Virus record (IMG/VR): IMGVR_UViG_2531839666_000025
Location: 1-4,389 of that record
Direction: 5' to 3' (one strand)
Length of the DNA stretch: 4,389 nt
Source: a virus
Taxonomy: Duplodnaviria > Heunggongvirae > Uroviricota > Caudoviricetes
The translations under genes and the position numbers were made by a program. The notes beneath the pieces are model-generated. The model was not told the origin of the DNA, made no database searches, and saw only the letters and a list, made by a program, of their open reading frames with translations. Shown here one piece after another: positions 1 through 4,389 of the stretch; position 1 is the stretch's first letter; each line of letters opens with the position of its first letter.

Positions 1-673
1 TTATTCCTGTGCCCAGCCAACCCTGTATGCCAGGATCTCATCCGCACTGCTCAGCGATTCCAGGTCCTTCTTCATGGTGCGCTGGCGAATGTGGATTTCC
101 ATCCCTTTAGTGAACATCGCCTGCTCTGCCGCTTCACTCAGCGCAATAAGCTCTTCTGCTGTCACCGGCACATCATTGTTTTCCGCATCCGTCCAGAAAA
201 ACGCCTCCGGCAGTTTCCCCGCTTTCGCTGCCGCCACCGACGGCTCAAGACGCGTCTGCGTTGACTTCCCGTAGTCCCATTTACGCCCATTGTGCTCAAA
301 CGTGTAGTTCGCCGCTTCCATCTCATTACGCCAGGCGTTAATTTCATCGCCCTTCATCCCGCGCGCTTTCTCCGCGGTCAGCAGGTCCGTGATTTTCTCC
401 CCGTCAAAAACCCCAGCGCCCCGAGATGTCAGCTTTGCGGTTTTCTTCCGTATCCGCCACCTCCACCACACTCTGGCCCACTGGCCACAGAACTGACGCC
501 ACCCTGCCGATGCCGGTAATGACTCCGGCACTGTTATAAACCACCTTCAGCGTCTCTGCTGAAAATAACGACTGACACTCATACCAGTCCTGACCATCCT
601 CTGATTTCAGGTACATCGCACCCGGCACATCCGGATTTTCCGGCGTGTATTGTCTGAAATTCTTTATGTGCAT
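1..673 (-). pseudogene. tfa: Tail fibre assembly protein (P2 gpG / Tfa chaperone family), reading frame broken by a 1-nt indel; intact equivalent would be about 223 aa
   Basis: Two overlapping minus-strand ORFs (673..404, 89 aa; 531..1, 176 aa) together resemble one Tfa. The first matches my recollection of the P2 gpG N-terminal region (SEDGQDWYE...KVVYNSAG...SVVEVADTEENRKADISGRWGF). The second matches the conserved C-terminal region of the tfa at 2905..3495 (INAWRNEME...RLEP...FFWTDAENNDV...). ATG at 673 is preceded by GGGAGGA with an 8-nt spacer; stop at 1..3. Confidence 0.75.
406..414 (-). other. Homopolymer tract (plus CCCC/AAAAA, minus TTTTTGGGG) where the tfa-1 frame switches
   Basis: Minus strand reads TGG GGT TTT TGA (W G F stop) in the upstream frame and GTT TTT GAC GGG GAG AAA (V F D G E K) in the downstream frame. 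Removing one T from the T5 run gives a continuous ...GRWGFDGEKITDLL... matching P2 gpG ...GKWMFKDGAVV... as I recall it. Confidence 0.7.
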
Positions 674-714
674 CTGTAAGTCCTCCCGGTTACATATCTG
701 ACAGGTGATGCGCT

Positions 715-2448
715 TTATAACGAAAAATACTCACGCCCCGGCGCTCCTGACGACACATACTCACCAACACCAACGGTGCGCCAGTGAGAGCCATCAAACG
801 TCATCTGCAGCGGCCTGTAGTAAATCGTTGTAACACGGCTGACGCCGCCCTGAGTGTTCCCCGAAAGCCCTGTAATGACTGAACCATCAGCCAGATTAAC
901 TGACCAGCCATGGTCCCCCTCCTGCAACTCATACGTTACCGGATTCCCCAGCCTGAAGCCCATGACACGACTCTTCCCGTCATCTCCTGATGCCCCCGGC
1001 GGCCCCATCGGCCCGGTTTCTCCACGCTCACCTCTGGGACCGGGGTCGCCTTTCTCCCCTTTCGGTCCCTGCGCTCCCCGCGGACCAGCGGGGCCTGTTG
1101 CTCCCGTTTCACCTTTCGGACCCTGTGCTCCGGGGTCGCCTTTCTCTCCTTTCGGACCGGGAACACCACCTCCTGCTGCAGCCTCTTCTGCCTTTGTTTT
1201 CGCTTCATTTGCCACATCCATTGCCGCCTTCACGGCCTTCGGCGTGGCTGCCTTTGTTTCGTCATTACTGCCAGTATCACTGCTTAACTGCACCACACCT
1301 TTCTGCGTCGTGCTGGCATCCCGCTGGCTGACCGTATCCGGTTTGTTTTTTGTGCTGTAATCCACCCGCCAGTGGAAATACTGTGTGTCGCCGTAAACCG
1401 TACAGGTACAGACCGTGCCATTAATAAACCCCGTTGCACCGTATTCGCCAATGGTGACCCGGACTATGGCAGCCTCATACGTCCCCATCACCTCAATGAC
1501 ACAGCCACCCAGATTGAGTTTTCCCGGTCCGACATCCGTGATGACTTTATTCATTGACGCAGGCAGTGATGCCTTCATCATCCAGTAAGGCTGGTCAAAT
1601 GCCCCTTTTTCTTTCAGCCAGGCGACAAACTCGCTCGTGGTCCATTCACCGGCCCCCGTATGAATGTCCCGCCCGTATACTCTGGCTGCTCCCACGGTGT
1701 TCAGAAACTTCACCTTATCCGGGATATCGTCACCGTTTTTCGCTTTCTCCAGGCATCCGTCCGCTTTGTCCATTGCCGCTTTCACCGCTTTCGGGGTGGC
1801 TGCCTTCGTTTCATCATCACTGTCCGTTGCGCTGCTTAACTGCACAATTCCCTTCTGTGCCGTCGTCGCATCCGGTCCTCCCGGCTCGCCTTTTTCGCCC
1901 TTCTCTCCCCGTTCACCTTTCACACCCTGAAGCCCCTGTGGTCCTGTCTCACCACGCTCACCCTTTGGCCCCCGCTCGCCGGTATCGCCTTTTGGCCCGG
2001 GAATACCCTGCGGCCCGGTGTCCCCCTTATCCCCCTTCGGTCCCCGCGCATTCTCTGCCCGTTTTTTTGCCTCCTCCGCACTGGCTGCGGACGCTTCCGC
2101 ACGTTTCAGGATTTCCGCTGCCACCGCTTCCAGCTCTGCAAGGGCTTTCGGGTAATACTGTGCGTCTTCCAGGTCCATCAGAAATTTATTCAGCGTTCCC
2201 GGTGCAGAATCCGCCTTCACCAGAATGTCACCCACATATGACGGCGCGTACCCTTCCGTGTTCAGCGTCACCCGGTACAACCCCGGCTCAACATCCATAC
2301 TGTAACTGCCGGTTTCCCCCGGCTGACCATACGCCACCGTGGTGACAATCACCGTCTCCGTTGTGCGGCGCGCTTTCAGCTCTATCGTGCATCCCGGTAC
2401 CGCTTTTCCCGTACCATCCTTCAGCACACCCGATATTCTGACTGTCAT
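715..2448 (-). CDS. stf: Side tail fibre protein, 577 aa: lambda Stf-like N-terminal domain, two collagen-like Gly-X-Y tracts, two tail-fibre repeat motifs, a central globular domain and a short C-terminal domain
   Basis: N-terminus [28 protein letters not shown] resembles lambda Stf [28 protein letters not shown] (from memory). Uninterrupted Gly-X-Y at aa 136-192 and 428-491. Motif [30 protein letters not shown] occurs twice (aa 196-228, 380-412). ATG at 2448..2446 preceded by GGGGGA; TAA at 717..715. Confidence 0.9.
976..1167 (-). repeat. Collagen-like Gly-X-Y coding tract 2 (about 21 triplets, stf aa 428-491)
   Basis: Translation [64 protein letters not shown] with Gly at every third position. 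The proline-rich plus-strand ORFs here are its antisense shadow. Confidence 0.9.
1213..1311 (-). repeat. Tail-fibre repeat motif, copy 2 (stf aa 380-412), a diverged direct repeat of 1765..1863
   Basis: [33 protein letters not shown]. At DNA level, ...ccattgccgccttcacggccttcggcgtggctgcctttgtttc... here parallels ...ccattgccgctttcaccgctttcggggtggctgccttcgtttc... in copy 1. Confidence 0.85.
1765..1863 (-). repeat. Tail-fibre repeat motif, copy 1 (stf aa 196-228)
   Basis: [33 protein letters not shown]; same motif as in lambda Stf ([28 protein letters not shown], from memory). Confidence 0.85.
1873..2043 (-). repeat. Collagen-like Gly-X-Y coding tract 1 (about 19 triplets, stf aa 136-192)
   Basis: Translation [57 protein letters not shown] with Gly at every third position. 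Confidence 0.9.
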
Positions 2449-2453
2449 GGATT

Positions 2454-2459
2454 TCCCCC
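2454..2459 (-). promoter_or_regulatory. Probable Shine-Dalgarno sequence of stf
   Basis: Minus strand GGGGGA followed by AATCC then ATG (2448). Confidence 0.5.
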
Positions 2460-2461
2460 AT

Positions 2462-2496
2462 AAAAAAACCGCAGTACCGGTTTCCCGGCCTGCGGT
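2462..2496 (-). terminator. Intrinsic (rho-independent) terminator, probable 3' end of the hok-like transcript
   Basis: Minus strand ACCGCAG-GCCGG-GAAA-CCGGuA-CUGCGGU followed by UUUUUUU: outer 7-bp stem, inner 4-bp CCGG/CCGG stem, GAAA tetraloop, then a T7 run. The T-tract ends 13 nt before the stf ATG. Confidence 0.7.
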
Positions 2497-2559
2497 AAAA
2501 TTTGTGGTTTGTTGGTGTTAAAACGGTGCCATCCGGCTGACCACCCTCAGCAACCGGTC

Positions 2560-2582
2560 GGCGGGGGATATTCTCCCCCGCC
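2560..2582. repeat. Perfect 9-bp GC-rich inverted repeat with a 5-nt loop, in the 3' untranslated region of the hok-like gene
   Basis: Plus strand GGCGGGGGA-TATTC-TCCCCCGCC (2560-2568 pairs with 2574-2582). No adjacent T-run on either strand, so it is more likely a structural or stability element than a terminator. Confidence 0.5.
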
Positions 2583-2590
2583 ACGGTTTC

Positions 2591-2731
2591 TTACTGCTTA
2601 CACTGTAAGAACGCCGCAATCTCCGCGCCCGCTATCCGGAACCGGAACTCGCACAGTGAACTGTGGGTGATCCAGATAATGAGCACTACCGTGATACAAA
2701 TCACGGTGGTTTTTAACGGTTTTTGCGACAT
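2591..2731 (-). CDS. hok: Hok/Gef-family type I toxin, 46 aa (small single-pass membrane peptide)
   Basis: Hand translation of the minus strand gives MSQKPLKTTVICITVVLIIWITHSSLCEFRFRIAGAEIAAFLQCKQ. It has a hydrophobic helix (TVICITVVLIIWIT) followed by the Hok hallmark SLCE..R.....E(I/V)AAF..(C/Y)K; compare R1 Hok ...[28 protein letters not shown], recalled from memory. ATG at 2731..2729 preceded by AAGGAG with a 9-nt spacer; TAA at 2593..2591. Not in the supplied ORF track. Confidence 0.8.
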   Translation of the reverse strand: MSQKPLKTTVICITVVLIIWITHSSLCEFRFRIAGAEIAAFLQCKQ

Positions 2732-2740
2732 AAACGCTTG

Positions 2741-2746
2741 CTCCTT
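2741..2746 (-). promoter_or_regulatory. Shine-Dalgarno sequence of hok (AAGGAG) with an adjacent anti-SD
   Basis: Minus strand CCUCUCC-GUAAAA-GGAG-CAAGCGUUU-AUG. The CUCC immediately upstream can pair with GGAG (plus-strand palindrome ctcc-ttttac-ggag, 2741..2754). Confidence 0.6.
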
Positions 2747-2876
2747 TTACGGAGAGGCGCTAACCTTTCACTTGCTTAGGATGAATGGTCAGGCCTCGGG
2801 TTAAACATGAATGTTTGTCCGGGGCCTTTTCACATCCGGCCTTCAGGTGTTCCCTCCGGCCATCAGCCAAAGGCAC

Positions 2877-2898
2877 CCGTGCATAATGTACGGTTTTT
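2877..2898 (+). terminator. Candidate plus-strand intrinsic terminator, possibly the 3' end of an antisense (Sok-like) RNA; speculative
   Basis: Plus strand CCGUGCA-UAA-UGUACGG (7-bp stem with one G-U pair, 3-nt loop) followed by UUUUUAUU. It lies antisense to the predicted hok leader, immediately beyond the tfa-2 stop. No convincing promoter found upstream. Confidence 0.3.
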
Positions 2899-2904
2899 AT
2901 TCTG

Positions 2905-3495
2905 TTACGTAAATACCGGCTCCTCACTCCCCCAGCCGGGCTGATAGCACAGTACATCACGGTATCGCGTCATCCCCGCAATCTCCTGTTTCATCTGTCG
3001 CTGTCTTTCGTGGATCCTGAAACCGTGCGCCACCATCGCCTGTTTCATGGCAACACCCAGCGCCTTCAGTTCATCAGCGTCTACCGCCACATCATGATTA
3101 TCCGCATCTGTCCAGAAAAAACGTTCCGGTAAATGTTCTGTCACTGCAAGCACGGGCTCCAGACGGCTCAGTGAGCGCTTACCTGCATCCCAGCGTCGCC
3201 CCTGCCATTCAAACACAATTTCTTTATTTTCTTCCTCATTTCTCCAGATGTTAATCCTGTCGCATGCCTTCTCTTTTTCCTTTTCCAGCATATCCTGACT
3301 TTCACGCCACGGTGTCACCGCTCCATACTGACCACCGGCAATGGCGGCAAACAGTTCACGCCATATCACATCGGGATCATGCGGCATCACAACGATATCC
3401 ATCCAGCACTCCCCCGACGGTAACTTCATTTCAGCATGAATGTTTCCGCTTTCGTCATACCTCGCATGACGGATTTCTGTAACGATCTCCGGCAC
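2905..3495 (-). CDS. tfa: Tail fibre assembly protein (Tfa chaperone family), 196 aa, apparently intact
   Basis: C-terminal two-thirds (DRINIWRNEEE...RLEPVLAVTEHLPERFFWTDADNHDVAVDADELKALG...) is paralogous to tfa-1; the N-terminal about 85 aa differs. GTG start at 3495..3493, 9 nt after the upstream stop, preceded by AAGGGGGG; TAA at 2907..2905. Confidence 0.88.
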   Translation of the reverse strand: MPEIVTEIRHARYDESGNIHAEMKLPSGECWMDIVVMPHDPDVIWRELFAAIAGGQYGAVTPWRESQDMLEKEKEKACDRINIWRNEEENKEIVFEWQGRRWDAGKRSLSRLEPVLAVTEHLPERFFWTDADNHDVAVDADELKALGVAMKQAMVAHGFRIHERQRQMKQEIAGMTRYRDVLCYQPGWGSEEPVFT

Positions 3496-3504
3496 AATCC
3501 CCCC

Positions 3505-4389
3505 TTAAAGCACATGAACCTTCTCATTTCCTGCCCGGAATAACGTGCCACCGTTACATAGAACGCTGATCGTCACGCGACAGTTATAATTCAGGGGGTT
3601 ATGAAAGGCGCGCACGTAACGATACCGGACATAAATCCGGTTGCGGTTTCCCCTCCCCTTTGCCGGAAGCGTGAATCTGTAAATCCAGTCATAATTTTCC
3701 CACACCTTATGCTTCAAATTCCCGGGCCCCCATTCTCCTGACGACCAGACAGTGGCAATTCCACCATCTGCACTATCAGTGCCGACACTGACTTCCCACC
3801 AGGCAGAAACAAGACCAGGATTGCCCTCAGCTCTGAAGGCTATCTTCATGTTAACATCAAAAAAACGATCGAAGTTTTCCCCGTCAACATTCAGAAAAGG
3901 GATCCATTCGTTATCTCTCTCCTTTACACCATCCCGTGAGCTGACACCACTGAACACAACTTTATTGATTTCAAACAGGGAGCGGTAATAAACATCGCCA
4001 AGAATATTACCGGCATCCACTGTTCCTTTAACGACGCAGTTTTCTGCAATGGTCACGTTATTCAGCGTGCCCGAGTTCGCACTGATATGTCCGCTGATGT
4101 CCGCATTACGGGCCGTCAGCCTGCCGTCCGGCGTCAGGGAGAACGTCGGGGGATTGCCGGACGAGGTGATGCTCACCGCAAACAACCGCTTCAGGAACAC
4201 ATCGTTCATGAACAGCTGATTCCCCTGCGCCACAAACAGCGGCGTGGTGTTGCCGTTCTCCGGGTTAATCATCGCGATACGGTCCGCCTGCAGCAGTATA
4301 TTGCTCAGGGGCTGGCCATCAGCATCCTCAATCCCCGCACCTATACCGGCAACATACGGAATGCCGTTTTTTGTTTCTGCACCTTCAGC
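3505..4389 (-). CDS. J: Host specificity / central tail fibre protein (lambda gpJ-like), C-terminal 294 codons; N-terminus lies beyond the window
   Basis: The frame is open from the window edge ([17 protein letters not shown]...) through the track ORF to TAA at 3507..3505. The segment [22 protein letters not shown]...[38 protein letters not shown] matches my recollection of lambda J ([18 protein letters not shown]...[41 protein letters not shown]). The last about 190 aa do not resemble the lambda J C-terminus. Confidence 0.8.

Follow-up and report, generated by a model that had tools for sequence, protein, structure and literature searches.

The window considered here is a stretch of 4,389 nucleotides from a tailed-phage sequence (positions 1 to 4,389 of IMG/VR record IMGVR_UViG_2531839666_000025, Caudoviricetes), on which a series of tail genes is read along the minus strand. 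The intergenic gap at 2449..2904 (456 bp), bounded by the start of the side tail fibre gene stf at 2448 and by the stop of a DUF4376 gene at 2905, very probably holds a hok/sok-type type I toxin-antitoxin module, which sits as a moron between J and stf in a lambdoid prophage of E. coli. Two independent profile matches underpin this identification: the 46-residue peptide encoded in the gap matches Pfam PF01848 (E 2.4e-11), and the adjacent 159-nt leader matches Rfam RF01794 (E 1.2e-10). An earlier note on this DNA had described a Hok/Gef-family toxin cassette in a 456-bp gap between tail genes, and its identity is now supported by the PF01848 match and by the comparison of related prophages; the gap has the length given there, and both of its flanks match tail-gene families.

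A small open reading frame (ORF) between tail genes could also be a chance frame, left where the 3' end of a tail gene has decayed or lying in a non-functional spacer. The size of the ORF fits such an origin and nothing further does. The Pfam and Rfam matches, the alignment of the region over its whole length with the hokB and hokC loci of E. coli K-12, and the clean exchange of the cassette for lom that is seen in a related prophage already refute this explanation, whose remaining probability is negligible.

The toxin gene and its predicted messenger RNA

The hok coding sequence occupies 2591..2731 on the minus strand and encodes 46 amino acids plus a stop codon: MSQKPLKTTVICITVVLIIWITHSSLCEFRFRIAGAEIAAFLQCKQ. 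In the profile search that the earlier note had called for, the peptide scored 43.5 bits against PF01848 (Hok/Gef; cutoff 22) and covered profile positions 8-42 of 42. Aligned with its family, it carries the invariant residues C12, T14, L26, E28, E37, and A39; C27 falls in the column of the LCE cysteine of the family, where HokB has Y, and C44 is read off the sequence. These conserved residues correspond to C16, T18, L30, C31, E32, and E41 in the description of Hok homologues by Escalera-Maurer et al. (2026 preprint, bioRxiv 10.1101/2025.08.07.668861). As judged by hydropathy, a single N-terminal transmembrane-like helix spans residues ~6-24, the Kyte-Doolittle 15-residue mean being 2.2-2.5 over residues 5-24. 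The ORF, its Hok signature, and its hydrophobic helix are thus as the earlier note had described them for 2731..2591, and so is the AAGGAG ribosome-binding site, which is located at 2741..2746 (minus strand), 9 nt ahead of the ATG. This Shine-Dalgarno sequence is predicted to be sequestered in a local hairpin by a conserved CCUCUCC, and the hairpin (helix 9) is 87% paired across the aligned loci.

For the comparison of loci, 79 viral-contig loci were gathered together with E. coli and phage loci, and the 37 distinct sequences among them were aligned. The hok frame is intact in 35 of these 37 loci and frameshifted in the other two, and its dN/dS of 0.09-0.58 against relatives indicates that the ORF is under purifying selection.

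The predicted full-length hok messenger RNA (mRNA) runs over 417 nt on the minus strand (2462..2878), with position 1 of RF01794 at 2878 and its 3' end at the terminator; the earlier note had put the unit at about 440 bp. RF01794 matches the leader 2878..2720 (159 nt, hok strand) over the full length of the model. Although this family is called "sok", its consensus is that of the hok sense strand and ends at the AUG. The 5' end of the transcript, GGGUGCC, is conserved and common to hokB and hokC of K-12. Folding of the predicted mRNA gives a minimum free energy (MFE) of -185.4 kcal/mol (z -7.5) and a 5'-3' closure, in which a 5' tac-like element (2862..2877, minus strand) pairs with a 3' fold-back-inhibition (fbi) element (2525..2541, minus strand) that lies just upstream of the terminator and includes an invariant GGCACC at 2530..2525. 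This 5'-3' helix (helix 1) comprises 16 pairs, of which 95.7% of cells are paired over the 37 loci, with 3 compensatory pairs, and it is recovered by RNAalifold. A second long-range helix, joining alignment columns 123-137 with 356-370, shows 4 compensatory pairs. The whole structure derived from the window is 85.8% paired over the 37 loci, compared with 37-43% in controls whose partners are shifted by 1-3 columns; as the structure was taken from one of the aligned sequences, these paired percentages are biased upward, and the compensatory pairs are the stronger evidence. Such long-range pairing would keep the full-length mRNA shut, and the modelled arrangement is the one characteristic of hok mRNAs.

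Two further hairpins lie downstream of the coding sequence. The first, a GC-rich hairpin right after the hok stop (2560..2582, minus strand; dG -21.9 kcal/mol, z -5.2), has a GGGG/CCCC core that is invariant in the 37 loci, while roughly every second locus leaves its outer pairs unaligned (73.8% of cells paired for helix 17). The second is the intrinsic terminator of the cassette (2462..2496, minus strand), with a stem at 2496..2468 and a U-run at 2468..2462. Here, a 12-pair hairpin followed by U7 folds with a dG of -21.6 kcal/mol (z -5.2; 0 of 200 shuffles as stable), which agrees with the terminator that the earlier note had placed at 2496..2462, and the consensus terminator scan did not pick it up because its stem is bulged. 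The stem is specific to the version of the cassette found in the J-stf slot: a relative that carries lom has another stem in front of the same T-run and stf leader. On the plus strand, two terminator-like scan matches were not adopted, one at 2560..2582, which is the post-stop hok mRNA hairpin on the opposite strand, and one at 2877..2893, which is not conserved in relatives. The latter hairpin and its T-run overlap the hok -10 box and +1, and could keep antisense transcription from running on into the DUF4376 gene; neither L001 nor the Stx-phage version conserves its stem, and it may be a chance occurrence.

Transcription of hok would start from a promoter whose boxes are putative. The -35 box TTTACG (2908..2913, minus strand) overlaps the DUF4376 stop codon and matches the consensus weakly, but it sits where the J-hok, Stx-phage, and P2-like contexts have a conserved TTGCCG or TTGCCC; a -35-like box moves together with the cassette. 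The -10 box TACATT (2885..2890, minus strand) is set off from it by a 17-nt spacer and precedes the +1 G at 2878 by 6 nt. It aligns with TATAAT of hokC in K-12, and relatives have TACAGT, TAAATT, or TAGATT at this position.

The predicted antisense RNA and the absence of mok

The antidote of the module would be a Sok antisense RNA of about 62 nt, predicted on the plus strand at 2774..2835, both ends having been mapped by alignment from the annotated sokB and sokC of K-12. Its predicted terminator consists of a stem at 2792..2826 and a U-run at 2827..2830 (plus strand; hairpin -21.5 kcal/mol). The putative Sok promoter (2738..2766, plus strand) is proposed by homology and comprises a -35 box TTGCTC at 2738..2743, a 17-nt spacer, and a -10 box TAACCT at 2761..2766; 6 of 12 consensus positions match, and the consensus scan did not report the site. 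On the hok strand, this -10 box reads GGTTAG, which is kept in 36 of 37 loci, the remaining one (L061) having GGATAG. The element TAACC is the one that was mutated to obtain a promoter-less sokW (primers YO-421 and YO-597; PMC8621323), and the -10 box of the window is its equivalent.

The presumed target of Sok is a stem-loop in the hok leader (2760..2792, minus strand), which is a local hairpin in the RF01794 model and whose stem is hypervariable. Across the 37-locus alignment, all 20 variants of the target (20/20) fold to one common stem-loop. Within the clade of sequences at least 95% identical, 17 of the approximately 50 varying columns fall in the 22 nt at 2768..2789, that is in the 5' tail of Sok and the stem of its target; five variants of the stem occur among the 16 sequences of this clade, the two arms changing in concert and the hairpin being kept. 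Further short hypervariable patches were seen at 2829..2834 (the 3' end of Sok) and 2569..2573. The patch at 2829..2834 assorts independently of that at 2768..2789, which suggests recombination. The idea that prophages residing together in one genome always carry different target variants was also considered: the copies L016 and L039 of one genome differ, the pairs L025/L034 and L038/L041 are identical, and this mixed result supports the idea neither way.

In plasmid R1, translation of hok depends on the overlapping frame mok. Several observations weigh against the gap of the window being a hok/sok module. First, no recognisable mok frame was found when all three frames were checked with non-canonical starts allowed, and the start position of mokB and mokC is occupied by none of ATG, GTG, or TTG. 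Second, the 55 bits of the leader lie slightly under the RF01794 gathering score of 59. Third, the NCBIfam models remain below their cutoffs, with 38.2 bits against 89 for the HokA equivalog and 37.2 against 73 for the Hok family; the window peptide is thus not HokA and belongs to a separate 46-aa subfamily. Fourth, the consensus scan found no sigma-70 site in 2400..2960, and because of this result both promoter calls rest on homology, the hok and Sok promoters being weak consensus matches. Finally, chromosomal hokA, hokB, and hokC have been reported to be unable to mediate post-segregational killing (introduction of bioRxiv 10.1101/2025.08.07.668861).

The missing mok frame can be followed in the alignment. 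The ATG of mokB and mokC aligns with ATC/TCA at window 2782..2784, in 37 of 37 loci the mok-equivalent frame runs into a TAG at 2762..2760, and no short upstream ORF is conserved across the related loci of the alignment. An ATT at 2786, located 7 nt past the conserved GAGG box, in the place taken by ATG in mokB and mokC, was rejected as a mok start, as it is not conserved in relatives. Because the whole 46-aa subfamily shares the absence and yet stays constrained, it is read as a trait of the subfamily and not as decay, although it does lower confidence that translation is controlled exactly as in R1. The authors of the Hok survey also describe Mok as hard to identify across Hok clusters (bioRxiv 10.1101/2025.08.07.668861).

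The same absence could instead mark an inactive relic, a locus that has the form of hok/sok but cannot be translated without its mok frame, comparable to the K-12 loci that fail to kill, and that persists by hitch-hiking in the tail region. The lack of a mok start codon, the conserved in-frame TAG, the hok frameshifts in 2 of 37 relatives, and the reported failure of the chromosomal loci are all in line with this. However, an entire subfamily without mok means that the absence is no lesion of the window copy, the dN/dS of the ORF is below 1, compensatory changes preserve the long-range mRNA helices as well as the Sok-target hairpin, and the core is conserved across three unrelated phage contexts. 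Moreover, the peptide 79_1563, which is identical to the window Hok at 45 of 46 residues, is among the 45 homologues that were tested and is not one of the three listed as non-toxic (Table S2 of bioRxiv 10.1101/2025.08.07.668861), so that by this exclusion list it is toxic on expression. The relic explanation is accordingly improbable, and a hok/sok-type module remains the preferred reading.

For such a module, the alignment supplies the sequence elements and their conservation, and the dynamics described below are carried over from R1. A weak promoter would yield the 417-nt hok mRNA (2878..2462), whose 5' end (2877..2862) would pair with 2541..2525. The full-length mRNA would be stable and untranslated, its Shine-Dalgarno sequence being held inside the local hairpin. 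A Sok RNA of about 62 nt (plus strand, 2774..2835), made from the promoter within the leader, would pair with the leader stem-loop at 2792..2760; this RNA would be unstable, and its pairing would keep the processed mRNA silent and mark it for decay. Once Sok is no longer replenished, trimming of the hok mRNA at its 3' end would lead to refolding and translation. The supply of Sok would end on loss of the prophage, or if an infecting phage or induction put a stop to transcription. The toxin, which combines one N-terminal membrane helix with a C-terminal part containing two cysteines, would by analogy insert into the inner membrane and collapse the membrane potential.

What the module may do for the prophage is a matter of graded conjecture. 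Retention of the prophage through addiction of the host is a tentative proposal, and defence by abortive infection is an even more tentative one. Help with lysis, as reported for hokW, seems unlikely, and a purely selfish module more unlikely still. The roles in prophage maintenance or exclusion named in the earlier note are speculation.

A mobile insert between J and stf

Judged from its arrangement, the cassette is a moron, an autonomous transcription unit within the late operon that is replaced in some relatives. In the prophage relative L012, whose stf N-terminus is 89.5% identical, the J-stf slot holds an Ail/Lom outer-membrane gene, and homology with the window is not regained before the T-run of the terminator and the ribosome-binding site of stf. 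The comparison of related prophages proposed in the earlier note therefore reveals a discrete unit, cleanly swapped for lom, and not the degraded end of a tail gene. The J-stf slot is the place of lom in phage lambda. The hok cassette and lambda lom share this slot, the orientation, and a terminator of their own directly before the stf start, but the cargo in lambda is an outer-membrane protein and not a toxin-antitoxin module.

The cassette is also found away from this slot. A conserved hok core of about 380 bp (~2898..2521) recurs elsewhere at ~73-80% identity, next to ogr where P2-like prophages end and next to lom in Stx short-tailed phages, and in all contexts it ends at ~2521, just past the fbi element. 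In two P2-like prophage ends near fabB-yfcJ-flk, a hok core of ~80% identity directly follows ogr (L013 5048..5188 and L014 5051..5191); in one, a TagO-like protein and a zinc-ribbon protein form the variable cargo next to it, and in the other this cargo is a Com regulator plus a DNA methyltransferase.

In the window, hok is oriented like the tail genes and its terminator ends 14 nt ahead of the start codon of stf. Late transcription would therefore have to read through the cassette, and we infer by analogy with lambda that Q-type antitermination would allow passage through its terminator.

Read along the minus strand, the window contains the J C-terminus (4389..3505; PF09327 match), a DUF4376 gene that resembles tail-fibre-assembly genes and forms the upstream flank of hok (3495..2905; PF14301, E 2.2e-17), the gap (2904..2449), stf (2448..715; 577 aa, with matches to PF08400, PF03406 [Phage_fiber_2], and PF01391 [Collagen]), which is the downstream flank, and a second DUF4376 gene (673..1). 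Most relatives have the order J-hok-stf-tfa, as in L001 and phage 1720a-02, and the DUF4376 gene at 2905..3495 is absent from this commoner arrangement. The window and six draft assemblies (L004-L009) have another J C-terminus and the additional DUF4376 gene, and a BLAST homology breakpoint at 2898 adjoins the upstream edge of the cassette. Co-inheritance with host-range determinants, which the earlier note had suggested, is consequently weak: two or more different J C-termini accompany the cassette, whose own upstream edge is where the breakpoint lies.

The segment 2899..4054, comprising the C-terminal ~180 aa of J and the additional DUF4376 gene, stands out as a replacement module. Megablast did not find it in any of the 5426 complete E. 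coli genomes or in the phage collection, yet 268 blocks of the assembly collection index the 196-aa protein of its DUF4376 gene; the six places displayed are NCBI draft assemblies. From its sequence, this module looks like a swap of a receptor-binding domain together with a chaperone, with its breakpoint at the edge of the hok cassette. As for the full arrangement of the window, no complete E. coli genome or phage record covers more than 74% of it, and it was found in draft assemblies only.

Two features of the downstream genes were also observed. In the protein encoded by stf (715..2448), collagen-like Gly-X-Y blocks occur twice, and so, in near-identical copies, does the Phage_fiber_2 repeat motif (16 residues); in assembly L005, the stf region gives many rearranged or duplicated BLAST segments, suggesting repeat-driven expansion or misassembly. 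The downstream DUF4376 (tfa) gene is broken into two overlapping minus-strand ORFs (404..673 and 1..531) by a frameshift near 406..410, where a T-run has one additional T (T5 in the window, T4 in L009, in which the gene is intact at 223 aa). This split reflects either an error in sequencing the homopolymer or the recent turning of the stf chaperone gene into a pseudogene.

Related systems, distribution, and significance

The closest described relative is Hok cluster 79, whose representative 79_1563 differs from the window peptide by a terminal R in place of Q (bioRxiv 10.1101/2025.08.07.668861). That catalogue covers coding sequences only, and the J-stf slot, Sok, and the absence of mok are not described in it; there is otherwise no difference of substance. 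Likewise, WP_000078852.1, a 46-aa "Hok/Gef family protein", is annotated by PGAP at a locus 99.6% identical to the window at the DNA level, the correspondence being one of locus and not of peptide alignment.

Among the classical systems, hok/sok of R1 resembles the window locus in its small membrane toxin, in its mRNA of ~0.4 kb with 5'-3' closure and an fbi element followed by a terminator hairpin, in its sequestered hok Shine-Dalgarno sequence, and in its cis-antisense Sok of ~60 nt transcribed from a promoter in the leader, which is predicted here. It differs in its toxin, which has 52 aa against 46 and an estimated ~30% amino acid identity, in its mok frame, which the window lacks, and in its plasmid context as opposed to a single-copy prophage. 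The hokB/sokB and hokC/sokC loci of K-12 align with the window over the whole length, share the boxes GGGUGC, AAGGCCCCG, CCGAGGCC, and GGCACC, and have their Sok in the columns of the one predicted here, but their toxins are 33-37% identical and they possess annotated mokB and mokC.

A further prophage-borne hok/sok, hokW-sokW, is known from Sakai prophage 5, a lambdoid (Stx) phage; its Sok -10 box is also TAACC, and it was shown experimentally to be a toxin-antitoxin system of type I that aids lysis after induction (PMC8621323). HokW is a 51-aa HokC-like peptide (MKQQKAM...) encoded at another locus than the 46-aa MSQK... peptide, and the two should not be equated. A 78%-identical Stx-phage locus was considered as "hokW" and rejected, the primers of PMC8621323 showing that the HokW under study is this different 51-aa peptide. 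Several RefSeq phage records (L003 4070..4210, which is NC_029120; NC_049917; NC_049343) label the 46-aa Hok as "MokW-like host killing". The peptide so labelled is Hok and not Mok, nor is it the 51-aa HokW of Sakai prophage 5.

The cassette is common. Of 5426 complete E. coli genomes, 472 carry it at a coverage of at least 80%, and one genome can have as many as 7 matching places. PGAP gives the name "Hok/Gef family protein" to every RefSeq E. coli match listed, hok is a called gene with a PF01848 match in all six draft assemblies examined, and the exact window peptide appears in the protein collection as "Hok/Gef family protein" on at least 1000 contigs. The expectation of the earlier note that standard annotation would miss the ORF was thus largely wrong, and holds only for some submitter-annotated phage records, in which the hok locus is without label or "hypothetical". 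Nor does the novelty that it implied stand: prophage-borne hok loci are well documented (PMC8621323; bioRxiv 10.1101/2025.08.07.668861), and Escalera-Maurer et al. found Hok homologues in 3852 prophages and 2501 phages, with an enrichment in prophages. Literature searches retrieved no paper on hok specifically in the J-stf slot. The cassette is nonetheless already known, being widespread, annotated, and catalogued, and the observation is correct and ordinary.

As a discovery, the locus has little weight: prophage-borne hok loci number in the thousands, and this one already has a RefSeq name, a catalogue entry, and what amounts to a toxicity test. It offers, in return, a clean example of a type I toxin-antitoxin module in the classic lom slot of lambda, moving among lambdoid, Stx, and P2-like phages, and of homology breakpoints between host-range modules (the J C-terminus, the tail-fibre chaperone, and stf) that coincide with cassette edges. 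Two features could, if confirmed, be of interest to specialists in toxin-antitoxin systems, namely the missing mok frame and the hypervariability of the Sok target. It is conceivable, though doubtful, that the hypervariability reflects diversifying selection and, jointly, that the 46-aa MSQK... subfamily works without Mok. If so, a diverged Sok would keep the antidote of each prophage private, such that the loss of one prophage would be punished despite a sister prophage with a similar cassette, and translation of hok in this Mok-free subfamily would be governed directly by refolding of its mRNA and by Sok-triggered decay.

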